Assembly: GCA_963676835.2 (NCBI GenBank)
Contig: CAXXFF010000003.1
Coordinates: forward strand, 480,001-544,000
Reading direction: 5' to 3'
From: Marispirochaeta sp.
GTDB lineage: Bacteria > Spirochaetota > Spirochaetia > JC444 > Marispirochaetaceae
Length of the DNA stretch: 64,000 nt
Position numbers and translations under genes: made by a program. Under the pieces are notes generated by a model. That model did no database searches and was not told the origin of the DNA. It saw nothing but the letters and a program-made list of their open reading frames with translations. Positions 11,817-27,314 of the stretch are shown here, piece after piece. How positions within the stretch are numbered: the first letter of the stretch is position 1; each line of letters begins with the position of its first letter.

Positions 11817-14800
11817 ATGAACAAAGAACAGAGCCTCCGACGACTCCGATACCGGGTTGTCCCATTCTTCCTAGTGCTTACCCTGCTATATTTGATCGTA
11901 TCCTGCGCAGGAACTCCGGGAGCTGAGAAAAATGAAGCATATGACTTACCCAGGGTTCTCTCGCAAGGCGAGAAGGTCACCATAATTCCCCAGGTTGGGT
12001 ACGGGCTGCTTAACGCCGTCTGGACCGGGGACTTTACCCCGGACATGCACTACCTTCTGGCCGGAGGCAGCGATAATGCCTTAAGAGTCTGGGATCTTGC
12101 GACGGAGCAGCAGATACAGACAGTCTATTACAACCATACCGTTACAGCTGTATGCGGTCTGCAGGACAGCAGATCGGCCATTGTGCTTGCAGGGGACAAT
12201 ATATATATCCAGGATATTTTTACCGGTGAGATTCTCCGGGACCTGGATGTGCAAAAGCCTTCAGCGGTAAAAGTTACCCGCGACCGTTCAAAGGCACTGA
12301 TTATTGCCGGGCCGACCAGCAATCCTCACCTGCTCTGCCTGGACCTGATAAGCGGTGAGAAAAAATCAATTTCCATACCCTGGGAATTCTACCTCTACGG
12401 ACTGGATTCAGGCCAACTCATCGATATCTCTGACGATGGCAAACGGGGACTTATTGCAGACCAGAGCGGCACACTTGGATTCTGGGACCTTGAAAAAGGC
12501 AGACTGCTCAGAAAAGTAGAGACATCGGATGTGCTTAACCGGATAGGCCGGGCTTGCCTGGATTCAAGCGGAAAATATGCCGCAGCCTGGGACTCACGTA
12601 ATAAAAGCCGCTTCGGGATATGGGAGATGGAGAATGGAACTCTCGTTGAGGAAGGAGACAACTACAAAGCTGTACGACCTGAGGATTTCCGCTCGGCCCT
12701 GCTGATGGAGGGGTATTCCCATGGTTCGTCCCCTGACGGCGAGCACTATCTTCTGCTGAATAAAAACTACAACAGGTCATACAGCAGACTTCAGATTCTC
12801 ACCGTAGCGGATATGACAGGGATTTCTATTAAAGCCGATATTGATCCGGTTAAACTGGTAACGGTGTTGGGCAGTGAGGATCAGTACTATGTCTCCCAAG
12901 GATACTATCAGATAAGCATAAGGGATGCCCATACAGGCAAAATCCTTCACCGTGCGCCTACCCGGAGAGGGATTACCAATTTTGAGTCCGGGGAAGACCC
13001 CCGGGCCATGATGATTGGGGAGTATATTGTCTATAAATCGGATTACCGGGAATACACCTTTTACAACGTCACAACAGGTGAAGTTTTCAGTGCGGAAAAA
13101 GAAGTTCCTGAAAGTGTATGGAAAACTGTTCATTCCGAAGAACCCTACAGTGCCTGGACCTTCCCCTCGGGAAAAGATGTTGACACTAACGGGCTTGAGA
13201 CGATTACCATGAAGGAAGAGCTGTATTACCTTCTTACCGAAGGGGATCATTTATCGGAAGAAGATGTAGTTCTTTCCGTTGATATATCTTCCGATGGCAG
13301 CAGAGGTTTAACTGTAGTCTCATCTCCGGATTCCCGGCAAATCCTAAATTTATGGGACCTTAAAAAACAGCGCCGCATTCAGATACTGAAACCCAAATTC
13401 ACGATTCGAGCGGCACAGTTTTCTCCTGATGGTAATTTTTTCCTGTATCTAGACGTAAATAAGATTATAATCGGGAACTCAGAAGACGGCTCAAAGCTGG
13501 AAACTATCCATACTCGGGACAGCGGCTACTTTACAGCAGCTCGTTTCAGCCGGGACGGCAGCCTTATTGCCGCAGGCTCCAGTACAGGAACAATTTCCAT
13601 ATGGAAAACTGACAATGGGAGATTGCTGAAAACCCTGCAGGGAGATGTGGTAGATACCTTTGATTTCTCTTCAGATAACAGCTTTCTGCTGACAGGCTCA
13701 AACGATGGTATTACAAAACTGATAAACCTTGAAACCGGTAGATGGGTGAACTTTCTTACCCATAAGAACGGCAGGGAGTGGCTCACCTACACCGATGAAG
13801 GCTACTGGGATTCGTCTCCCGGCGGCGGCAGCCTTGTGGCCATGGCAAAGGGAGCAGATAACTGGAATATTGATCAGTTTGCTTCGTGGAACAACAGACC
13901 GGACCTTATCCTCTCTTTGCTCCCCCATGCGGATACAGCCCTGCAGGAGCATTACGCCCGACAGAATGCCCGGCGTTTTGAGAAGCTGAATATAGATGCT
14001 GAGTCGGTGATGACGGAGCTGCCCTTTCCGGAAGCTGCAATTACCGGGACCGAGCAGAATGGGAAACAGCTGACCCTCAGTGCATCCTTTTCGGATGAAA
14101 ACTACGATCTTGCCTCATGGAATATCTTTATAAACGATGTTCCCCTGTGGGGGGAAAACGAAGGGATCTCAGGAAATACCGCTGAAATTACCGAGACTAT
14201 TGAGCTTGCTTCGGGTAAGAACAAAATTGAGGTATCCTGTGTAAACTCAATGGGTCTTGAGTCATTCCGACCGGTGTACCATGCCGAATATGAGGCGGAG
14301 GTTTCGGGTGATCTTTACTACATCGGCTTCGGTGTTTCCAGCTACGCCGATGAAAGCCTGACCCTGAACTATGCCCACAAAGATGCCCTGGACCTGGGAG
14401 AACATTTTGCGTCACTCTCGGACACCGGAGAGTACAAAGAAATCCACATTCACACCTGGACGGACGAAGAAGTAAACAGAGAAGCAATTACAGAGGCAAA
14501 GAGCATCCTTCTGGATGCTTCTGTTGACGATACGGTAGTACTGTTTATAGCCGGCCATGGGGTTTATGATGATGCAGCCGACAGAACCTACTACTACCTT
14601 GTACACGATTCCGACCTCTCACAGCTTTCTGAGACCGCAGCGGATTTTGAACTGATAGAGGATATACTGGCAGGAATTCCTCCCCGGAACAAACTGTTTC
14701 TGATGGATACCTGTGAATCGGGAGAGATTGATCCTGAAGTAAGGACTACCGCCCTGACTATTGCGGGCAGCCGTGGTATTTCCGCCCGCAGCATTGAGTC

Positions 14801-15899
14801 CCGGGGACTTTCCCGGAAAAATGTGCAGGAAGAGACCTCTACTGAAGTGTACTACCCCACAGACCGGGACAGCTACATCTATAACGACCTCCGCCGGCGT
14901 ACAGGAGCCATTGTATTCTCCTCTTCCCGGGGAAACGAATACTCCTATGAAAGTGATGAAATTGAGAACGGCTACTTTACCCATAACATTCTTAAAGCCT
15001 TGAATTATTCCCTCAATGATCTGGATGAAAACGGACTGATATCAACGGATGAACTGCGGGGCCTTGTAACCGACGGGGTTTCCTCCGACACCGGAGGGAT
15101 GCAGCATCCTGTTGTTGACCGGGATAACATCTACCAGATCTTCGGATTCATTCCCGGTAATATCCTCGAGTTTATAGATGTTGAAGGCGGCTCCCTGACT
15201 CCGGAATATGGCAGGAATGTACGGCTCTCAAAAATTGAACCGGTTATGGTTGAAGATTTTATGTTGAGTAAATACGAGGTAACCCGGAAACTCTACCAGG
15301 AAGTAATGGGGATTAAGGATAGAAGTTCTGTTACAGGAGCGTACCGAATGCCGGTAGATAATATCAGCTTCGTGGATGCAGTCCGCTTCTGCAACGCCTT
15401 GAGTAAGAGAGACGGCTTTGAACCGGCATACACAATCGGCGATGAGGATACCCCGGTTATACACTGGAACAGAGATAAAAACGGCTACAGGCTGCCTACA
15501 GAAGCGGAATGGGAGTTTGCCGCAGCTGTTGACGGCAAGGATGTTTACTCGAACCGCATAAAGGACGCATACCTTGAAGAGTATGCCTGGTACCGGGAAA
15601 CAAGCGACGGCCCGCGGGAGATCGGCACTAAAAAAGCTAATTTACTTGGTCTCTACGACATGCTCGGCAATGTTCCGGAACTCTGCTGGACAAGCTATCT
15701 GGACCGGAGAAGTACCCTCTACCGGAATGATCCCCTGGTTGTTGATACCGAACATGCGACAGTGAACACAAGCGGGACCGCCCGGGGACTGGTACAGTAC
15801 TCAAGGATTTTTTATACCCGCGACCTTGGAATAGATAATCGGAAGCCCGCCGGTTCTGTAAGTCCTTATTTCGGTCTCAGGCTGGCCCGGAACAAGTAA
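11817..15899 (+). CDS. Lipoprotein with WD40 repeats, caspase (peptidase C14) domain and FGE-sulfatase (SUMF1) domain
   Basis: LIVSC lipobox; WD repeats (GSDNALRVWD, GSSTGTISIW, GSNDGITKL); FIAGHG and MDTCESG dyad; KYEVT, YRLPTEAEWEFAA, GLYDMLGNV, FGLRLAR. Confidence 0.88.
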   Translation: MNKEQSLRRLRYRVVPFFLVLTLLYLIVSCAGTPGAEKNEAYDLPRVLSQGEKVTIIPQVGYGLLNAVWTGDFTPDMHYLLAGGSDNALRVWDLATEQQIQTVYYNHTVTAVCGLQDSRSAIVLAGDNIYIQDIFTGEILRDLDVQKPSAVKVTRDRSKALIIAGPTSNPHLLCLDLISGEKKSISIPWEFYLYGLDSGQLIDISDDGKRGLIADQSGTLGFWDLEKGRLLRKVETSDVLNRIGRACLDSSGKYAAAWDSRNKSRFGIWEMENGTLVEEGDNYKAVRPEDFRSALLMEGYSHGSSPDGEHYLLLNKNYNRSYSRLQILTVADMTGISIKADIDPVKLVTVLGSEDQYYVSQGYYQISIRDAHTGKILHRAPTRRGITNFESGEDPRAMMIGEYIVYKSDYREYTFYNVTTGEVFSAEKEVPESVWKTVHSEEPYSAWTFPSGKDVDTNGLETITMKEELYYLLTEGDHLSEEDVVLSVDISSDGSRGLTVVSSPDSRQILNLWDLKKQRRIQILKPKFTIRAAQFSPDGNFFLYLDVNKIIIGNSEDGSKLETIHTRDSGYFTAARFSRDGSLIAAGSSTGTISIWKTDNGRLLKTLQGDVVDTFDFSSDNSFLLTGSNDGITKLINLETGRWVNFLTHKNGREWLTYTDEGYWDSSPGGGSLVAMAKGADNWNIDQFASWNNRPDLILSLLPHADTALQEHYARQNARRFEKLNIDAESVMTELPFPEAAITGTEQNGKQLTLSASFSDENYDLASWNIFINDVPLWGENEGISGNTAEITETIELASGKNKIEVSCVNSMGLESFRPVYHAEYEAEVSGDLYYIGFGVSSYADESLTLNYAHKDALDLGEHFASLSDTGEYKEIHIHTWTDEEVNREAITEAKSILLDASVDDTVVLFIAGHGVYDDAADRTYYYLVHDSDLSQLSETAADFELIEDILAGIPPRNKLFLMDTCESGEIDPEVRTTALTIAGSRGISARSIESRGLSRKNVQEETSTEVYYPTDRDSYIYNDLRRRTGAIVFSSSRGNEYSYESDEIENGYFTHNILKALNYSLNDLDENGLISTDELRGLVTDGVSSDTGGMQHPVVDRDNIYQIFGFIPGNILEFIDVEGGSLTPEYGRNVRLSKIEPVMVEDFMLSKYEVTRKLYQEVMGIKDRSSVTGAYRMPVDNISFVDAVRFCNALSKRDGFEPAYTIGDEDTPVIHWNRDKNGYRLPTEAEWEFAAAVDGKDVYSNRIKDAYLEEYAWYRETSDGPREIGTKKANLLGLYDMLGNVPELCWTSYLDRRSTLYRNDPLVVDTEHATVNTSGTARGLVQYSRIFYTRDLGIDNRKPAGSVSPYFGLRLARNK

Positions 15900-16146: not shown

Positions 16147-16248
16147 GGAAAAACCAGCTGTTTTAGAACAGAAAATTACGTAAGCATTGTTTAAGCGCAG
16201 TTTGTATGCTATATGTTTAAGCATCTAAAACTTTCAAGGAGTAATGTT

Positions 16249-16536
16249 ATGAGAAAACTGAAGTTTTTCGCCCTGGCCCTTGCGCTCAGCATGGTCCTCT
16301 TTTCCTGTGCTACATTTACCTTTCCGGTAAGTGCCACAAGCAATGAAATGGGTTCAAAAGTCGGTGTTGCAACCGGTGTAACCTACCTGTCAATGTTTGG
16401 TGATGACACCAACACCAGTATTCAGGCAGCTGCTGCCAACGGCGGAATTACAAAAATTTCTTCCGTAGACTTTTCCTATAATCCCGGGATCCTCGGAATT
16501 ATTCAGACCTACACCTGTACTGTTACAGGGGAATAG
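16249..16536 (+). CDS. TRL-like family lipoprotein
   Basis: AAGGAG SD before ATG 16249; LFSC lipobox; SKVG...SIQAAAANGGITKISSVD...TVTGE. Confidence 0.8.
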   Translation: MRKLKFFALALALSMVLFSCATFTFPVSATSNEMGSKVGVATGVTYLSMFGDDTNTSIQAAAANGGITKISSVDFSYNPGILGIIQTYTCTVTGE

Positions 16537-16579
16537 GAACTTATAGCCGGAGGCTGTTGCGGTCTCCGGCTTTATTATT

Positions 16580-17107
16580 ATGAAAAAACTACTTTTACCC
16601 GCTTTAGCTCTGCTGATGTTTCTCTCATGTACTACCACCGGTCGGGAAGTCAGGATTTTCTTTATTGACCAGGGAAAGCTTCAATATTTTCTGCCCAATG
16701 AGACCTGGATAGACCGGGAGAAACCGGATACTTCCATGGATGCAGACGTTCTTTTCCGCTCATATGCTCTTGAAAACGAACAGGAAGCAATGACAATCTT
16801 TAACTTTACCCTGCGGTCCGGCGATCCGGCGATACTGCACGGGAATCCTGTTGTTTCCCTTGCTTTATGCAATGGTGATTCTGAGGTGGTGCATCCTGAA
16901 GGTGTAGAGGTTCTGTTTACCGACAGAGGCATGGTGCGCTATACAAGCTTTATGTCAAGCAGTGATTTTTCAGCTTACATGAACAGCTGTGAGGAGCCTG
17001 TAATTATGCTTGAGACAGCCAGGGGAAGCTTTAAGTTTGTATCCAAATCCGGTGCATTTTATGAGCACATCGATTATTTTAAAACCGTCAGACCCGAGAT
17101 AAATTAA
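16580..17107 (+). CDS. Hypothetical lipoprotein
   Basis: MKKLLL...FLSC lipobox; follows the TRL-like gene. Confidence 0.7.
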   Translation: MKKLLLPALALLMFLSCTTTGREVRIFFIDQGKLQYFLPNETWIDREKPDTSMDADVLFRSYALENEQEAMTIFNFTLRSGDPAILHGNPVVSLALCNGDSEVVHPEGVEVLFTDRGMVRYTSFMSSSDFSAYMNSCEEPVIMLETARGSFKFVSKSGAFYEHIDYFKTVRPEIN

Positions 17108-19918: not shown

Positions 19919-21526
19919 TTGAATATTATCAGCAGCAGGTTTTTACCAGTAAGGTTTCTATTTTTTATTCTTTTATCTTCAGCATTTTTCTCAGCTCATC
20001 TGTACTCAGATGAATGGCTTGATCAGTTTATAAAATACACGGATAACGGAAAAACCCTGCGCTATTTTCCCCGCTTTCACGAAGGCACCTGGACAGTGCC
20101 GGAGGGAGTGGAAAAGATCGGCAGGGGCGCTTTTGCCCAGTGCCTCTACATAACTGAGCTGAACCTCCCCTCCTCCCTGAAAGAGATAGATGAAAAAGCC
20201 TTCTACTTCTGTTACGGCCTTGAGTCTCTCAGTATTCCCGAAGGGGTCGAAAAGATCGGCGACTCGGCTTTTTACCGCTGTGAATCCCTTGAGACTATCA
20301 GCATCCCTCAATCGGTGAAAGAAATAGGCATCAATGCATTTTATGAGAGCGGGATTACTTCACTGACGGTCCCCGGCCGGGAGGTGAAACTGGGAAGCAG
20401 CCTGGTCAGCAACTGCGGAAAACTGGAAAAAGCTGATCTGCGCTATGCCGCAGAAATAGGGGATTACGCCTTTGAGGACTGCGACAGCCTTAAAGAAGTA
20501 TATCTGCCCGAGGGTATTTACTACTCAAATCTGGCAATTCCCGCCACCGCGGCGCTTCATCTGGTTTCGCCCGACGGTATCCACCGGGGCATTACCGCCT
20601 ATTCGACTATAGAAAAAGAGATTGATGATGACCGCAGCTATGCTGAACGGCTTATTAAGCGGAATAACAGCCCCGTGAAGGCTCTGCCGGGAGAAGAGGA
20701 AATTACCCGGAAGGACATTCAGGGCAGCTGGTTTGCGGACTATCGTAACGGTGAATATATCTCTCCCGGAGGAAGCGGCAGACTGGGGTTCTTTGGTCCC
20801 AACACCGGAGACAGCGGTACCTGCTTTATTTTCAACCGGGACAATACCTGTGTTACCGGGGTTTTTGCTTCCGGGGCATCCAGCGGCGGAACCTACGAGG
20901 TAGGAGACAAGCAGATCGATTGCAAAATGGTCAGCTACGCAGTGGATGAAGATGCTGAATACGATGGTCCCCAATATTACTACAACACCTTTATTCCGGT
21001 ACTGCTGGATAAGACTCATCTTCAGCTTGAAGACCGGGAGAACGGATACTGGTATATCTGCTCCCTCCACGATGAAGAGCTTCGGGAAACCCTGCTGAAT
21101 GATACAACTGCTAGGGCATTTAAAATACTGGTACTGGGAAAACAATACCTGGGCTGTACTTTTGCGTCGGAAGAAACTCTACTGATGCAGGCGGTGAAGC
21201 AGACAAACCCGGCTGCAGTTGAATGGCTGCTTGGCAATATGAAACAGGATATTAACGCTCAGAACATGTACGGGATGACAGCCCTCCACTACGCCATGAG
21301 ATATAAAGAGGACAATGAGGATACGCAGAGAATTCTCGATCTGCTCCTTGAAAACGGAGCAGAGGTGAATCAGCTTGATGACTACGGCCAGACCCCGCTG
21401 GATTATTCCCTGTATGACTACCCCGCCAGCTACTATAACGAAAATCTGCGCAGGGCTCTTGCAGAAGCCGGTGGAAAAAGCAGCAGACAACGCTGGGCAC
21501 AGCATATGACCCGGCAGGATTTTTAG
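19919..21526 (+). CDS. Secreted BspA-type leucine-rich repeat (LRR_5) + ankyrin repeat protein
   Basis: Signal peptide; IPEGVEKIGDSAFYRCESL repeats; GMTALHYA...LLLENGAEVNQLDDYGQTPLDY. Confidence 0.85.
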   Translation: MNIISSRFLPVRFLFFILLSSAFFSAHLYSDEWLDQFIKYTDNGKTLRYFPRFHEGTWTVPEGVEKIGRGAFAQCLYITELNLPSSLKEIDEKAFYFCYGLESLSIPEGVEKIGDSAFYRCESLETISIPQSVKEIGINAFYESGITSLTVPGREVKLGSSLVSNCGKLEKADLRYAAEIGDYAFEDCDSLKEVYLPEGIYYSNLAIPATAALHLVSPDGIHRGITAYSTIEKEIDDDRSYAERLIKRNNSPVKALPGEEEITRKDIQGSWFADYRNGEYISPGGSGRLGFFGPNTGDSGTCFIFNRDNTCVTGVFASGASSGGTYEVGDKQIDCKMVSYAVDEDAEYDGPQYYYNTFIPVLLDKTHLQLEDRENGYWYICSLHDEELRETLLNDTTARAFKILVLGKQYLGCTFASEETLLMQAVKQTNPAAVEWLLGNMKQDINAQNMYGMTALHYAMRYKEDNEDTQRILDLLLENGAEVNQLDDYGQTPLDYSLYDYPASYYNENLRRALAEAGGKSSRQRWAQHMTRQDF

Positions 21527-21566
21527 ACATCGTATAGGCAAAGTGCAGCCAAAGAGAGATACAAAC

Positions 21567-22058
21567 ATGAAATATTATATATTTACAGTCCTGCTGATAA
21601 TTGCCTCTATCCTGCCCGCATTCGGAGACGAACCTTCTCTGCTTCCCGAAGAGTATTCGGTGGGTGAAATTATGCGCCTGTCGCCCTATCCTCCTGTGCA
21701 GGAATCAAGTGGTAAAGATAAGACAATTATACTGACAACCGAATTGGGAGAAGCCTATTACCCCGTGGATTTACGGGTTATCTATGAAAACGGTGCCGCC
21801 GCCGACTACCATTCAGAGAAAGATGACGGACGGATTAATCTGGAATATGATAAAAAAATAAGCCTGGTAATCCTGATGCAGTGGGGAAATGAATCTACCG
21901 GAGAAATTATAAATCTTGAGCCGGAAGAACTGGAGAAAGCTCAGCTGCTATCGGTAGACGGAGGCCGTCTACCCATGGTCGTAGACCTGCGACCTTTCGA
22001 GGCCGATACCTACTGGATTGTTATAGAGAGCGGATTCTCTGTAATGGGCTTTTTTTAA
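21567..22058 (+). CDS. Hypothetical secreted protein
   Basis: MKYYIF...LPAFG signal peptide; acidic mature region. Confidence 0.7.
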   Translation: MKYYIFTVLLIIASILPAFGDEPSLLPEEYSVGEIMRLSPYPPVQESSGKDKTIILTTELGEAYYPVDLRVIYENGAAADYHSEKDDGRINLEYDKKISLVILMQWGNESTGEIINLEPEELEKAQLLSVDGGRLPMVVDLRPFEADTYWIVIESGFSVMGFF

Positions 22059-22096
22059 TCCCTTTGAATTTTGAGAATAGGAGCGGGGAATAGTAA

Positions 22097-23662
22097 TTGA
22101 AGCATAGAAGCAAGTTTACAACGGTATTTCTTTTCCCCGTTTCTCCGCGTTTTATCCCGATTCTTTCTTCTTTTCTTTTCTCTGCATTGTTCTCATTTTT
22201 ATTTCCTCTGTTTTTTCTTACAGGATGCAGTGATACCAGGCCCTCATTGTATGTTCATGACCGCCATGGGGAATCGTATATACCGGTAAAATTGTGGGCG
22301 GAGGAAAATCCCGGGCTGGTTCTGATTCTGCTGGATTATCACCACGATACCGGCCCGGGGCCTGCATTGAATGACAAGATACCGCCTGCAAGCTTCAACT
22401 GGGTTGGTGCGATGATCAGTGAACATCTGATAGATACGGTACTCTGGGTTTCGGGAAATGAGTTAGAGCTGCCCAATATCAATGCCCGGAAGGCATGGCT
22501 GGAACGAAAAATTTCCCGGGACCCGCCTGAGATTGCTCAAATGAAAAGAGATGCAGTACACATACTTACCTGGGAGGATCTTCCCCGGGCTGTTGCAGAA
22601 TCAAGAGAGTCACAAAAGCAGAAAAGGCCGATGGCGGTAACAATAGATCTGGATATTCTTACCATTGATCCAGGTACTGATCCTGATAAGTTCCTGAAAG
22701 AGATTCTTGAGACCAGTGTGGCACTGAAACCTGTTGGAATTACCCTGGCACTTTCCGCCGCCTACCAGCCGGAACCGGAACAGGCCTGGAAATGGCTGAC
22801 CCAGAGCTATGCTTTTCTTGCTGAAGAGTGCAGTACCCCCGTCTGGGCAGCGGGAACCTGGGAATCTGCTGCGGAAAGCCTGGAGGAAAAGACAAGCTGG
22901 GCAGCATGGAGGAATACGCCTGTATTTATAGATTTCGGCAAAACCTTCGCCCCCGGAGCAGAGCTGTGGAACCACGCGCCGGCATCCTTCTGGGATAACC
23001 TCCTGGAAACCATTCCCACAGGATCAGATGAAACCGGCAGATATCTTTCCAATCTGCTGAATACAACAAAACAAAACCTGACAGATCTATCAGAGATTTT
23101 CCCCGAGCCACGATTTCAGGCAATAAAAGAATCCGCCCGGGAGACTGTTCAGCAGACCTGGTATGGAACAGCATGTGGAGAATCTTCCGGAAGAGAGCCT
23201 CCACTCCCTGTTTCTCAGGTTTCGGATAGCAGCTATGGCCTGGCAATCCGTTATATACGGAAAACTGAAGACCGTGGCTGCTTTGCACTCTACCAGGGTT
23301 TAGAGTGCCCTGAAGATGCTGCTGGATACATTTCCCGGGAAGCGGGCTTTACTGATCCCAGATATTCCGCAATAAGTGCTGCTGAGGCCGAAGAACTCGA
23401 TATAGAAATAAGTATTTTTGCAGATTTTGAAATGGTCACAGATCCTTTTGATTTTGTCCCCGGTATACATTCCCTTGTAGCTGAATATGATGGAGGGAGA
23501 ACACTCCTTCAGGCCGGCATTGCGGCGGAAAGAGATTTTTCCCGCAAACAGTTTCTGGATACCCTCGCAAGGAAAGCCGGTTTGGAAAACCTGGATGCCA
23601 TGCCCGACCCACTTTTCAGCCGTGCCGTAACCCTGTATCAGCGCTCTCCTTTCCTGGATTAA
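22097..23662 (+). CDS. UPF0489-like domain fused to AMMECR1 domain; probable lipoprotein
   Basis: FLTGC lipobox-like; HDRH, LLDYHHD, FNWV, IDLDIL; C-terminal DRGCF, DPRY, LDIEISIF, FVPGIHSL, FLDTLARKAGL; start uncertain. Confidence 0.75.
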   Translation: MKHRSKFTTVFLFPVSPRFIPILSSFLFSALFSFLFPLFFLTGCSDTRPSLYVHDRHGESYIPVKLWAEENPGLVLILLDYHHDTGPGPALNDKIPPASFNWVGAMISEHLIDTVLWVSGNELELPNINARKAWLERKISRDPPEIAQMKRDAVHILTWEDLPRAVAESRESQKQKRPMAVTIDLDILTIDPGTDPDKFLKEILETSVALKPVGITLALSAAYQPEPEQAWKWLTQSYAFLAEECSTPVWAAGTWESAAESLEEKTSWAAWRNTPVFIDFGKTFAPGAELWNHAPASFWDNLLETIPTGSDETGRYLSNLLNTTKQNLTDLSEIFPEPRFQAIKESARETVQQTWYGTACGESSGREPPLPVSQVSDSSYGLAIRYIRKTEDRGCFALYQGLECPEDAAGYISREAGFTDPRYSAISAAEAEELDIEISIFADFEMVTDPFDFVPGIHSLVAEYDGGRTLLQAGIAAERDFSRKQFLDTLARKAGLENLDAMPDPLFSRAVTLYQRSPFLD

Positions 23663-23673
23663 TTACAGGGCAC

Positions 23674-24603
23674 CTATTTAGTAAACCTGCCAAGAAGAGT
23701 AAAAAAGTAGCTGGTAATGTCCTGTTCTCCTTCACCGGAGATAAGATATGAGTTGCTGTTACTCAGAACAGAACTCCTGGAACCGGGAAATCTTTCAGCC
23801 AGCCGTCCGTAGATATACATCCCCGGCCTGTTATCACAGCCGGCGAACACCCATGAATCACCATCGGGACTCATAAGAAAATCCCTGCTGAGAGCATCCT
23901 TTCTTTGTGTACTGTCACTGTTTCCATGATGGGAAAAATCGCTGGAGACAAGCAGGAAAATATCCTCTTCCTCGAGGACTGAACAAACAGCCTCACAGAT
24001 ACTCTGCACTCTGCCCACATTTACCGGCGGTTCACCCGGAACAGCCAGAACACTTACCCGGGCCTTGGGAAAATACCGTTTTATAAAAGGCATAAAAACT
24101 GCCACGCCGTGTTCATAAAGAAAGGCCGTATCATTAGGGCGAATATGCAGATTTTCAATTATGGCCAGGGAAAGGGGTTTACTGTTTTCAACAGCTCCCC
24201 CGGGGGTATTCCAGCTTCCCAGGGTGCTTACCGCCTCCTGCTCATCTAAATCCCAATGAAGGGGGCTTATAATTAGAAAGGTTGAAACCTCCCGGAGCTC
24301 TTTAAGATCCGAAAAAAAGCGGTCTATCATGCTCCCCGCAAGCAGGTGGTGACTGGCAATACCTGCAACGGGATAAAGGTCAGGGGGCGGCTGAACCCAG
24401 GTATATTCTTCAATAAGCGGATAGCTGTCCCCCCGGCTTTCCCAGGTGGTAAAAATCGTACCGGTTTCCCTCTGCTGCTCTTTTGAACCATTAACCTTTT
24501 CTGCGTCAGGCTTTTCCGGCAGAGTTACCTGCCGGGTACAGCCGGACAAAAAACAGTTAAGGATAATGAGACAGCTGAGAATCAGCATAGAATACTGCCT
24601 CAA
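23674..24603 (-). CDS. amrB: Memo/AmmeMemoRadiSam system protein B homologue with lipoprotein signal
   Basis: FLSGC lipobox; GIASHH, ISPLH, WNTPGG, YEHG, VSSDFSHH, ITSYF. Confidence 0.85.
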   Translation of the reverse strand: MRQYSMLILSCLIILNCFLSGCTRQVTLPEKPDAEKVNGSKEQQRETGTIFTTWESRGDSYPLIEEYTWVQPPPDLYPVAGIASHHLLAGSMIDRFFSDLKELREVSTFLIISPLHWDLDEQEAVSTLGSWNTPGGAVENSKPLSLAIIENLHIRPNDTAFLYEHGVAVFMPFIKRYFPKARVSVLAVPGEPPVNVGRVQSICEAVCSVLEEEDIFLLVSSDFSHHGNSDSTQRKDALSRDFLMSPDGDSWVFAGCDNRPGMYIYGRLAERFPGSRSSVLSNSNSYLISGEGEQDITSYFFTLLGRFTK

Positions 24604-27314
24604 CGGGGATCCAGGGTTATACCTTCCATCCAGAAGGGCAAACGTTCCGCAAGGTCGGCATCCTCTTCATAAACCTCACGGCGCCACTCTTCATTGGTCA
24701 TTCTATCAGTATAAGGCACGGTAAACTCGTAGTAACTGAACCCGTAGCCCTGGGCTATCCGCTTGCCTCCCTGGCCGTCGTTGAGAGCAATATAGAGTCT
24801 GTGAGGAATTCCTGTTGCAGTCTCCAGAGCCAGCCCCTGTTCCATGTTGGTGAATACATCAGCAATAACAGCTCCCCGCAGACTGTCGGGATCATCGGAA
24901 TACATGCTGTAATCGGCTCCCGGAGGTACCACCAGCTTGCTCAGCTGTTTAGGTACAGTTCGTATCCACTGCAGATCCTCAGTAGATACCGCAGCATCGT
25001 TATACTCCTGTTCCACGATTTTGAGACTACGGGTAAAGATCTGTTCAAGCTGAGTTGACCTGTTCCGGAACTCTTCATCCTGGAGCTGGTAATTATTGGC
25101 GATCTTTGCCAGGTGTTTGATACTGTTCCGCGCCCCCCGGAAGTAGGCCAGGTTCGGTTCGATGTAGTGAACCGGCTTCGGCAGAGGATCAACCCTGTAG
25201 GTGGGTTCATAGTCGCCATCCCCTGCCCGTTCCGCATACACCTGTTTAACATACAGAATGGTATCGTGACGCAGGGCGGCCCAGGTTCCGTGAGCTGCAA
25301 GCTGGCTTTTTATGCCCCATTGGGGGGATTCGGTAAAATAGAAACCGCTGCCTGGTTCAAATAATGCCTGAGTCTTGATCTGGTAGAGAACCTGATTGTA
25401 GTAAGTTTCGGTCCAGATATCCGGCTCCATTGCTGAAATATGATCCGCAATGGATGCAATCAGTTCTTCAAGACCGGGCATAACAGGATAGTCACTCTGC
25501 TGAAGCAGATAATCCGCAGTGGTAGAGCCGAAAGCTCGAGTTATATCCAGCCCCCGGACAATATCCCTGGGCATAAATCGTGGTGGTGATACAAACTGAT
25601 GTATGTATGAATCCCAGGTAAAACGCTGGCCGAACAGTCTCCAACCCATGGGTGGATTCTCATAATCTTCGGATGGAGCGTCAAAAACTGAGTTACCGGA
25701 AATTACCGGGGGCCGGAGCTCCTCATGGGCTTTGTTTACCGCAGCAATAATATTAGATTCCTGCTCAAGCCAGAAAGGGAGATCTAATATCCCGAGCTCT
25801 TCATAAAAGGGAAGCAAATCATAAAATGAGAGGTCATCACTCATACCGATAAGAGCGGTAATGGGATCGAACAGCTCTTTCCAGGATGCAAGCAGGGTAT
25901 CCTGATTATCCCGCACCAGCTCTGTGAGTACCGCGACCATGGGGAAATGGCGGACAGACAGCTCTTCGGCAGTATCCTGCGGAACAGGAGATCCGTCCAG
26001 GGGCAGAGGAAGTGTTTTACCCGCAGAAATGTAGCTGTGGATTCTGCCGTACCACATCATGGCTCTGAAATAAGTTTCGAGAATACCGTTTTTAGTATAA
26101 TGACCCCGGGCCTTATACTGGGAGTAATCTTCCCTGTACCCGAAATTCGGGGAAATCTCCATGCCTTCAGCTGCAAGAATAAGCTTTACTTCGATAACCA
26201 CTGAATCCGGGTAGCCCTTAAGCACATGATTCTCATCGAAAGAAGCATATGTGACTGCGGTGCGTCCATATTCATCCTCATGACGGTGCCTTTCCGGAGC
26301 CAGGTCGAGGAGAGCCTGGGCAACCTGAAAGTAGCTTACGGCCCTTTCCAGGGCTTCCCCGTAGACGGTATCTTCTGTCGCTTCTGCAGCTTTATTCTCC
26401 AGGAGCCGGAGAAAATCGCGATTAAATTCGGTCAGCCTGCGGAGAAGGTAGTTTTCTTCAATAAACTGCAGGTACTTGTCAAAATAGAGATGAAGACTGT
26501 TGGCATACACATCGGTGGTCAGGAAAAGGGGAATCTGTTTATCTTTTGCATCCTGAATATACAGGGCGAGCATATCATCAGGCTGGTCCAGGGAGAGCCG
26601 GTACTCGCCCGGATTAACCCGCTGAAAGGCAATACGGTCTGATTCAAGCCGTTCCTTTACTCCCGGAGAAAGAGGGTCAAGGCCGATGAAGGAGGGAAAC
26701 AGCCCGGATTCCGCCTGCTCGGAATAGAGCTCGGCCAGAATGGCATTCACCTCCGCTGATTCACCGATACCGGCAAGATCCGCTCCGAAAACCGTCCCGG
26801 CTTGCCCGTCGAGTTCCACTGCGTAAAAATAGTTATAATTATTCTGAAACTTGAAAAGGCCGTAGTACTCTTCGTCGGAGTTTTTGATCTTTTCAAGGAG
26901 CTGCAGATGTGTTCCTTTGGGAATGGCAGTCCCTGCCGGCAGACCGGCAAGATCATCCGTTGATACAGGCTGAAAACCGGGATAGAAGAGTGCCATCGAA
27001 CTGCCGATAACACCGGAAGCGGCGTAGGCGGGTATGTTCAGATCACGGAAATCGGTAGGATCATCCAGATACTGCTTATGTCCCGCAGGGCTTCCGGGAA
27101 TGGGCTGTACTTCAAAATCAAGCACAATGGGTTCTGGTTTCTCAACTTCAATATTCTCTTCAGGCTGGTCAGCCTCTTCAGCAAAGGCTGCAGGCTGTTC
27201 CTGAGCCGGCTCCTCTGTAATCATCTCCTGCACCGTGTCTTTAGAACAGGAAAGGAAGGAGACGCCGGGAAGAACAGTAAACACAAGCAATAACATTAAT
27301 AATGATTTTTTCAT
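24600..27314 (-). CDS. DUF3160 domain lipoprotein
   Basis: FLSCS lipobox; FLTTD, DYSQYKARGHYT, YFRAMMWYGR, FGQRFT.DS, WAALRHDTILYVKQ, YIEPN, IADVFT, SYYEF, RMTNEEWR. Confidence 0.88.
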   Translation of the reverse strand: MKKSLLMLLLVFTVLPGVSFLSCSKDTVQEMITEEPAQEQPAAFAEEADQPEENIEVEKPEPIVLDFEVQPIPGSPAGHKQYLDDPTDFRDLNIPAYAASGVIGSSMALFYPGFQPVSTDDLAGLPAGTAIPKGTHLQLLEKIKNSDEEYYGLFKFQNNYNYFYAVELDGQAGTVFGADLAGIGESAEVNAILAELYSEQAESGLFPSFIGLDPLSPGVKERLESDRIAFQRVNPGEYRLSLDQPDDMLALYIQDAKDKQIPLFLTTDVYANSLHLYFDKYLQFIEENYLLRRLTEFNRDFLRLLENKAAEATEDTVYGEALERAVSYFQVAQALLDLAPERHRHEDEYGRTAVTYASFDENHVLKGYPDSVVIEVKLILAAEGMEISPNFGYREDYSQYKARGHYTKNGILETYFRAMMWYGRIHSYISAGKTLPLPLDGSPVPQDTAEELSVRHFPMVAVLTELVRDNQDTLLASWKELFDPITALIGMSDDLSFYDLLPFYEELGILDLPFWLEQESNIIAAVNKAHEELRPPVISGNSVFDAPSEDYENPPMGWRLFGQRFTWDSYIHQFVSPPRFMPRDIVRGLDITRAFGSTTADYLLQQSDYPVMPGLEELIASIADHISAMEPDIWTETYYNQVLYQIKTQALFEPGSGFYFTESPQWGIKSQLAAHGTWAALRHDTILYVKQVYAERAGDGDYEPTYRVDPLPKPVHYIEPNLAYFRGARNSIKHLAKIANNYQLQDEEFRNRSTQLEQIFTRSLKIVEQEYNDAAVSTEDLQWIRTVPKQLSKLVVPPGADYSMYSDDPDSLRGAVIADVFTNMEQGLALETATGIPHRLYIALNDGQGGKRIAQGYGFSYYEFTVPYTDRMTNEEWRREVYEEDADLAERLPFWMEGITLDPR

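Follow-up and report, generated by a model that had tools for sequence, protein, structure and literature searches.

In this study, we examined genes for DUF3160, Memo and AMMECR1 proteins in a 64,000-nucleotide stretch of Marispirochaeta sp. DNA (assembly GCA_963676835.2, contig CAXXFF010000003.1, positions 480,001 to 544,000 of the forward strand), referred to here as the window. Five open reading frames (ORFs) were found at the coordinates reported by a first-pass annotation, which had read them as one exported five-protein system with DUF3160 in place of a radical S-adenosylmethionine (SAM) enzyme and a leucine-rich repeat (LRR)/ankyrin protein as recognition subunit. As listed in Table 1, the ORFs lie in two convergent sets, and the 11 bp spacing of the facing stops is real. 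The overlap of the DUF3160 and Memo genes, formerly described as ATGA coupling, is TTGA: the TTG start of Memo overlaps the TGA stop of DUF3160, and an ATG lies 15 nt further downstream. Pfam and TIGRFAM profile searches of the five proteins upheld the AMMECR1, Memo and DUF3160 identities. No frame of at least 150 aa in the window contains a CxxxCxxC motif, in agreement with the reported absence of a radical SAM ORF. A scan for promoters and terminators gave counts close to those expected by chance (11 vs. 9.0 and 11 vs. 9.4, respectively), and a single plus-strand transcription unit is unsupported. Three of the five genes, encoding DUF3160, Memo and an arginase-fold/AMMECR1 fusion, form a system, hereafter the module.

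Table 1. Genes, domains and intergenic gap of the locus, with positions in the window
Feature	Positions	Strand	Properties
DUF3160 lipoprotein, module core	24600-27314	-	904 aa; PF11369; lipobox FLSC, Cys24
SH3b-like domain of DUF3160, probable cell-wall-binding	26748-27029	-	about residues 96-189
Memo-family lipoprotein, SHHLL clade	23674-24603	-	309 aa; PF01875, TIGR04336
Arginase-fold/AMMECR1 fusion lipoprotein	22097-23662	+	521 aa; convergent with Memo; optional module member
Arginase-fold (UPF0489/peptide-arginase-like) domain of fusion	22238-23044	+	structure match, metal ligands
AMMECR1 domain of fusion	23093-23659	+	RGC (393-395), DPRY (420-423); structure match
Gap separating convergent stops	23663-23673	none	11 bp
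LRR-ankyrin ORF	19919-21526	+	BspA-type LRR and ankyrin; Pfam LRR_5 and ankyrin; signal-like N-terminus; outside module
Orphan hypothetical ORF	21543-22058	+	163-171 aa; no Pfam/NCBIfam family; signal-like N-terminus; outside module

The conservation of these genes was examined in 401 genomes of the spirochaete phylum (the first set), in which a strong Memo-clade match was defined as E<1e-30. By comparison of coordinates, DUF3160 was located directly upstream of Memo on the same strand in all 26 strong carriers, which span 10 families. The module was present in two of the seven genomes of the window's own family. A Memo-profile search returned 80 loci (136 pattern matches; related genomes are not independent), and DUF3160 was found in 70 of them, AMMECR1 in 35, the arginase-fold domain in 23, a CapA-family protein in 7, and the radical SAM protein AmrS in none. 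A search with the AMMECR1 fusion returned 32 metagenome loci, many of which share an accession series and are not independent; 24 of these contained DUF3160, 24 Memo, 5 CapA and none AmrS. Ten of the 80 loci lacked DUF3160: six are matches at a contig edge, two (L052 and L054) carry DUF3160 elsewhere in the genome, L089 is from a genome in which DUF3160 was not found either, and the tenth is L087. AMMECR1 was located beside the core in three layouts, convergent downstream, divergent upstream and co-directional (L082). Among the distant classes, L090 and L091 have DUF3160>Memo>CapA operons, and L107 and L108 combine CapA, DUF3160 and Memo with a short AMMECR1 lipoprotein. All three module genes are present in Treponema bryantii NK4A124 (L042), a carrier that can be cultivated. 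Homologues of the window genes came nearly all from spirochaetes, and the closest named homologous locus (L010) is also from Marispirochaeta sp. These results demonstrate that DUF3160 and the lipoprotein Memo are a coupled two-gene core to which AMMECR1 and CapA are optional additions, and we are nearly certain that the module exists.

The LRR-ankyrin and hypothetical genes behaved differently from the module genes. They were found in one of the 80 loci and in none of the 32 metagenome loci, and in that one locus, from the same-genus relative G004, only as a deletion scar (L009:7140-7440), in which ~73 codons from the start of the LRR gene run directly into the final ~20 codons of the hypothetical gene, with an unrelated ankyrin gene behind them. 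The three module genes of G004 are intact despite this deletion. Among 67 candidates scored, the orphan hypothetical protein matched only itself. The two genes are passengers in a variable slot, and we reject a role of the LRR-ankyrin protein as a subunit, given its absence from 79 of the 80 loci and its deletion in G004. The proposed co-occurrence of the five genes therefore held for DUF3160, Memo and, as an optional member, AMMECR1, and failed for these two. Besides the four module families, the only neighbor cluster above 7 of the 80 loci was a mixed ATP-binding cassette (ABC)-ATPase cluster (10 loci, position not fixed), and no pgs/cap or lasso-peptide cluster recurred among the neighbors of these loci. 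In two genomes from different families, a transglutaminase-like lipoprotein and a C39-like protein are encoded divergently upstream of DUF3160 (L107:9307-11246 and L109:2385-4333).

Export signals had been claimed for all five products. The three lipobox-like motifs, FLTGC, FLSGC and FLSCS, passed a simple in-house rule, which was used for all lipobox calls instead of SignalP; the signals of the LRR-ankyrin and hypothetical proteins rest on reading of their N-termini. Lipobox-like motifs were found in 56 of 59 full-length DUF3160 proteins, in all 22 of 22 fusions and in 75 of 92 Memos of the module. For comparison, they were found in 0 of 11 canonical AmrB proteins and in 57 of the 459 remaining ORFs in these loci. 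The lipobox Cys column was at least 90% conserved in the alignments. These results argue strongly that the module is extracytoplasmic.

The DUF3160 protein matched Pfam PF11369 over nearly the whole profile (6e-158, 527.6 bits, positions 15-625 of 632), and its AlphaFold2 model, built from 108 sequences, had a predicted local distance difference test (pLDDT) score of 92.4. The core is large, helical and rich in conserved polar residues, e.g., D268, E286, D396, R403-G-H405-Y406, H683-D684, E719 and D819 in the 108-homologue alignment, in which no conserved Cys was found past the lipobox. The SH3b-like domain was matched by VIA to the SH3b domains of NlpC/P60 proteins, LytB and an endolysin with Z-scores of 5.2-6.3, which are modest alone (root-mean-square deviation mostly 2-3.5 A over 59-74 residues). 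Pfam SH3_3 was above the cut-off in the DUF3160 homologues L092, P0227 and P0242, and below it in the window protein itself. With the whole model, Foldseek gave no match at E<=0.001 and a wide VIA search gave none at Z>=8 (best 6.7); as both used the undivided 844-residue model, these null results are not evidence of a new core fold. Sequence searches of the PDB with DUF3160 and the Memo profile gave no match, and a search of the ESM Atlas for DUF3160-like entries lacking PF11369 gave nothing usable. A complex prediction for the DUF3160 core and Memo with paired 64-row alignments scored 0.00, which indicates neither binding nor non-binding. The family has 2,992 representatives at 50% identity. 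It has received one passing mention, as a "secreted enzyme", in the part of the literature available to us (PMC4158269, excerpt). In a scan of 48 of 150 representatives, homologues outside spirochaetes carried type IX secretion system (T9SS)/FlgD, dockerin or beta-helix domains, and in P0267 and P0281 DUF3160 is preceded by the anti-sigma-like domains zf-HC2 and FecR. A divergent DUF3160 that stands alone and lacks a lipobox (L102:5506-8454), in a genome with neither AmrS nor a strong module-Memo match, is possibly a decaying remnant.

The Memo lipoprotein matched Pfam PF01875 (2e-16) and TIGR04336 (85.2 bits, cut-off 26). It keeps the metal-site residues H85, H116 and C256 together with H165, D222 and H225, all of which are invariant in 47 close homologues. 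In the alignment, the first three fall on the PHAG, PSH and ACG motifs of the canonical AmrB proteins, the counterparts of H49, H81 and C244 of human MEMO1, a protein outside this alignment. An excerpt of a study of human MEMO1 describes binding of Fe or Cu via these three residues and reports that dioxygenase activity was not detected (PMC11081632). The conserved triad, together with the conserved His, Asp and Glu residues of DUF3160, is compatible with a role of the module in metal or redox handling in the envelope, where Memo would bind Fe or Cu, AMMECR1 would provide a reactive Cys and DUF3160 would be a metal-binding scaffold. We consider this role improbable, as the Memo Cys is lost in distant members, the thioredoxin gene adjoining the window locus does not recur among the 80 loci, and the repeated recruitment of intact hydrolase- and epimerase-type domains would be left unexplained.

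The model of the fusion protein had a pLDDT of 91.8. Pfam AMMECR1 was matched at residues 379-500 of 521 (4e-14), and the score against TIGR04335 was 40.8 bits, below its cut-off of 99. The AMMECR1 domain superposed on the solved structures of PH0010, ST0229 and MM0484 with Z-scores of 13.2-13.7. Within RGC and DPRY, the R, G, C, D, R and Y residues were invariant in 34 of 34 sequences and the P was found in 32, whereas the last Gly of the RGChG motif was Ala or Ser in 33 of the 34 module AMMECR1 sequences. These RGC/DxRY motifs have been proposed as the active site (PMC2034487, excerpt).

The N-terminal domain of the fusion had been called UPF0489-like. This holds in the sense of an arginase-fold domain; Pfam support was weak (Arginase in 3 and UPF0489, PF12640, in 1 of 15 family members, the latter at E 0.0027), and Atlas matches to UPF0489 clusters at 0.85-0.87 are leads only. 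The best structural match was the peptide arginase OspR (8brp; Z 12.9, rmsd 3.8, 192 aligned residues), while small-molecule ureohydrolases scored lower (Z 10-11, up to 11.2). The six metal ligands H57, D80, H82, D84, D184 and D186 were kept in 32-34 of 34 sequences, and they follow the H...DxHxD...DxD pattern of the Mn ligands H12, D39, H41, D43, D165 and D167 of OspR (PMC10028609, excerpt). The same excerpt describes Glu11 of OspR, in the motif EEH(N/H)EAF, as guanidine-stabilizing and a peptide substrate as required. The domain thus shares its fold and ligands with the peptide arginases OspR, FlmR and OhkR (PF12640; 8BRP; PMC10028609 and PMC12703449, excerpts), but it differs from them in having DRHGESY in place of EEH(N/H)EAF, in being exported and in being fused to AMMECR1. 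Arg56 stands at the position of Glu11 (Arg in 33 and Lys in 1 of 34 sequences). Judged by its conserved residues, the domain probably acts like a binuclear amidino- or amido-hydrolase, and we do not assign it as a peptide arginase.

Three features were missed by the first-pass annotation: the SH3b-like domain, the complete binuclear metal site of the arginase-fold domain, and a further link of the module, to CapA. DUF3160 was present in 9 of 251 genomes from the phylum of G407, five times beside CapA and once beside a Memo-CapA fusion, without any AMMECR1. These pairs (PF11369 with PF09587; L159-L161, L163, L166 and L167) share DUF3160 with the window module, and the module Memo falls on the same side of the Memo tree as the exported Memo-CapA-type proteins. 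They differ from it in that the window module has a stand-alone lipoprotein Memo, a CapA that is usually unlinked and an added AMMECR1 lipoprotein. The GD, NLE, NNH, HWG, PH and GN motifs are kept with small variations in 11 aligned module CapAs. The optional fourth member of the module is a PGA_cap protein with conserved motifs, like the CapA/MslH epimerases, although the window locus encodes none. The peptide epimerase MslH shares ~52% identity with CapA, for which the authors of the MslH study propose epimerization of poly-gamma-glutamate (PMC8179263, excerpt). Four loci contain a second type of exported Memo of ~500-550 aa with a C-terminal extension (L095:4685-6193, L097:4589-6247, L103:5363-6856 and L104:4326-5960; a partial PGA_cap in L103). 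DUF3160 is absent from these loci, and just upstream of each of these Memo genes lies one for a secreted protein of 320-555 aa that has no firm Pfam assignment.

Memo and AMMECR1 normally belong to the AmmeMemoRadiSam association (TIGR04335 AmrA, TIGR04336 AmrB and TIGR04337 AmrS; PMC2034487, excerpt). The Marispirochaeta genome has this canonical triad scattered on contig C1, with AmrS at C1:164702 (above the TIGR04337 cut-off), Memo at C1:750014 and AMMECR1 at C1:16351, and the N-termini of these copies read as free of a signal-like stretch. Since a separate cytoplasmic triad is present, the window Memo and AMMECR1 are extra copies. In the cytoplasmic AmrB of this genome (L002:1489-2334) and in its relatives from G004 and G102, DNT replaces the usual EHS motif. 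In the AMMECR1 tree, 39 module domains were split from 34 canonical or fused domains with an SH-aLRT support of 100. In the Memo tree, which kept 54 module rows and left out two truncated rows and about half of the module rows, these 54 and six other exported Memos were split from 20 canonical or fused AmrB proteins with a support of 100, and the module alone had a support of 90. The six form a "Memo-CapA-type" group consisting of L103 and L167 with PGA_cap, the long exported L095, L097 and L104 without it, and the stand-alone L089. In view of these splits, the module proteins represent ancient lineages of their own rather than recent duplicates of the AmrA and AmrB of this genome. Thus, an AmrS gene exists elsewhere in the genome, unlinked, which the first-pass annotation had counted as a danger to its proposal, but neither domain groups with the canonical proteins.

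The module therefore resembles AmmeMemoRadiSam in combining Memo with AMMECR1 and in its intact metal residues and RGC/DxRY motifs. It differs in having no radical SAM gene in the locus, in its lipoproteins and in its separate branches in both trees. In addition, AMMECR1 is an optional member that carries a fused arginase-fold domain, and DUF3160 is the partner that stays constant. Three proteins with CxxxCxxC were found in the 80 loci (L045, L071 and L082); they are other radical SAM types, unmatched by AmrS. In two further loci (L096:3785-6474 and L105:5452-8156), the gene for a signal-bearing Memo-AMMECR1 fusion is directly followed by a radical SAM gene, whose product has a twin-arginine-like leader, and by a gene for a ~740-aa membrane protein. 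This exported AmrB-AmrA fusion with its Tat-like AmrS shares export signals on Memo and AMMECR1 with the module, but it keeps the radical SAM gene and PHAG, groups with the canonical proteins and has no DUF3160. Exported Memo and AMMECR1 are thus not unique to the module; the distinct feature is a radical-free branch centered on DUF3160. The annotated envelope-targeted Memo and AMMECR1 offshoot, tied to DUF3160 without a neighboring radical SAM gene, is borne out by linkage, lipoboxes, trees and AmrS-negative carriers. Its wider five-protein form, with DUF3160 substituting for the radical SAM enzyme, draws on the position of DUF3160 where AmrS would be expected and on the absence of AmrS from all 112 loci. 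We regard this form as very unlikely: two of its five proteins are passengers, neither the sequence nor the model of DUF3160 has a link to radical chemistry or a conserved Cys for it, the partner of DUF3160 outside spirochaetes is CapA or Memo-CapA, and spirochaetes also have a separate exported triad that includes a radical SAM gene.

The best explanation of these results is that the genes encode a conserved extracytoplasmic enzyme module of Spirochaetota that is independent of the cytoplasmic AmmeMemoRadiSam triad. Tentatively, and with somewhat less confidence than doubt, we propose that it modifies peptides in the envelope, a substrate and chemistry that we infer. The lipoproteins would be anchored on the periplasmic face of a membrane. 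DUF3160 may hold the module at the cell wall via its SH3b-like domain and may add a further catalytic or substrate-presenting core, while Memo, with its His-His-Cys metal site, and AMMECR1, with its Cys nucleophile, would run a radical-independent step. The OspR-like and CapA-like domains would be optional tailoring enzymes. Candidate substrates are the stem or bridge of peptidoglycan, a polymer rich in glutamate, and a peptide at the surface. By analogy, peptides are suggested by the accessory families, whose characterized members act on them (OspR-type amidino-hydrolases and MslH/CapA-type epimerases). Because many carriers are anaerobic treponemes of the rumen and gut, an oxygen-dependent dioxygenase role is unlikely. 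It is possible, though doubtful, that the module belongs to an undescribed class of extracytoplasmic peptide tailoring built around DUF3160, as a large enzyme with no relative of solved structure. Exported Memo and AMMECR1, a CapA-type epimerase and a hydrolase resembling the peptide arginases would be recruited to it, to put a modification on spirochaete peptidoglycan or another envelope peptide.

The same domains could instead serve periplasmic scavenging, in which an imported or host-derived compound (amidino, acyl-amide, phosphoester, modified nucleoside or peptide) is broken down before uptake. The patchy gain-and-loss distribution in 26 of 401 genomes and two of seven in the window's family would fit such a role, as would the likeness of the arginase fold to small-molecule ureohydrolases, the metallophosphatase fold of CapA, and the secreted-enzyme character of DUF3160 and of the domains attached to it outside spirochaetes. 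However, no transporter or catabolic gene recurred beside the core in the 80 loci apart from the mixed ABC-ATPase cluster, and the SH3b-like domain points to the wall. We therefore regard scavenging as unlikely, although it deserves to be kept in view.

Several results weigh against an independent, peptide-acting envelope module. All 26 first-set carriers have AmrS, compared with a base rate of 201 of 401 genomes, as well as canonical AmrA and a CapA somewhere in the genome, and the 13 carriers of family f2 all fall among its 19 AmrS-positive genomes out of 52. A connection of the module with the triad, or with larger genome size, is therefore possible. The module might carry out the envelope part of a pathway that starts with the cytoplasmic triad, acting in trans with AmrS. 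Such a pathway is quite improbable, because AmrS was not found in 23 of 43 further Treponema carriers (four of the 20 AmrS-positive ones repeat first-set genomes at the same coordinates), and 175 of the 201 AmrS-positive genomes lack the module. Canonical AmrA was found in one of the 23 AmrS-negative carriers and recA in 22; these are assemblies of unstated completeness, for which recA is a single marker and a rough control. Eleven of the 23 have only a weak-scoring module-type AMMECR1, which in G663 and G676 lies away from the core locus. The simplest reading is that the whole triad was lost and the module retained in these Treponema. Strict dependence on AmrS, as suggested by the 26 of 26, is contradicted by the 23 of 43.

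Further points on the same side concern the trees, the core and the chemistry. Both trees were quick maximum-likelihood searches, and that of Memo carried a long-branch warning. DUF3160 was above the cut-off in 36 spirochaete genomes, 10 of which had no adjacent Memo, and three of the nine DUF3160 genes in the phylum of G407 had neither partner. The window locus has no CapA, the two CapA genes of the genome being elsewhere, and the arginase-fold domain was found in only 23 of the 80 loci, so that the peptide-acting members are optional. The Memo Cys is replaced by Ser in the more distant L106, L107 and L109. Z-scores of 5-6, as found for SH3b, are also reached by common structural arrangements. 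With Arg at the position of OspR Glu11, Arg-to-ornithine chemistry is doubtful.

Outside the module, a lipoprotein-like protein of 1360 aa, encoded at 11817-15899 (+) of the window, combines WD40 propellers with caspase-like Peptidase_C14 and FGE-sulfatase domains. It is also present in G004, and a WD40 and C14 protein directly follows Memo in L082. At 16213-17107 (+), a TRL-family small lipoprotein and a 175-aa familyless lipoprotein are encoded, and no blastn match to this stretch was found in the G004 region.

Work by Burroughs et al. (2019) reportedly defines several Memo-clade families and may already list the module clade. That work on the Memo superfamily, which is cited for "Memo-Ammecr1 systems" in an excerpt of PMC7159879, lay outside the literature that we searched, in which no description of the module was found. 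The module is a real, conserved and uncharacterized variant of Memo/AMMECR1 systems. Memo and AMMECR1 are conserved up to humans and linked to disease, and their reactions are unknown: in excerpts of the respective papers, the "primary molecular function" of MEMO1 "remains unknown" (PMC11081632) and AMMECR1 is uncharacterized (PMC2034487). Existing ideas on both proteins rely on the radical SAM neighbor and on RNA modification. A long-diverged lipoprotein branch that has kept both active sites, dropped AmrS and gained cell-wall-binding and peptide-acting partners argues for a radical-independent extracytoplasmic activity. The soluble domains of the module need no iron-sulfur cluster and are directly assayable, which offers a simpler route to the enzyme function, and DUF3160 gains its first consistent partners. 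If the proposal is true, Memo and AMMECR1 would perform chemistry without radical SAM, and a first substrate class would be available for the human MEMO1 and AMMECR1 families. The module may represent an unrecognized envelope chemistry in gut, oral and free-living spirochaetes.

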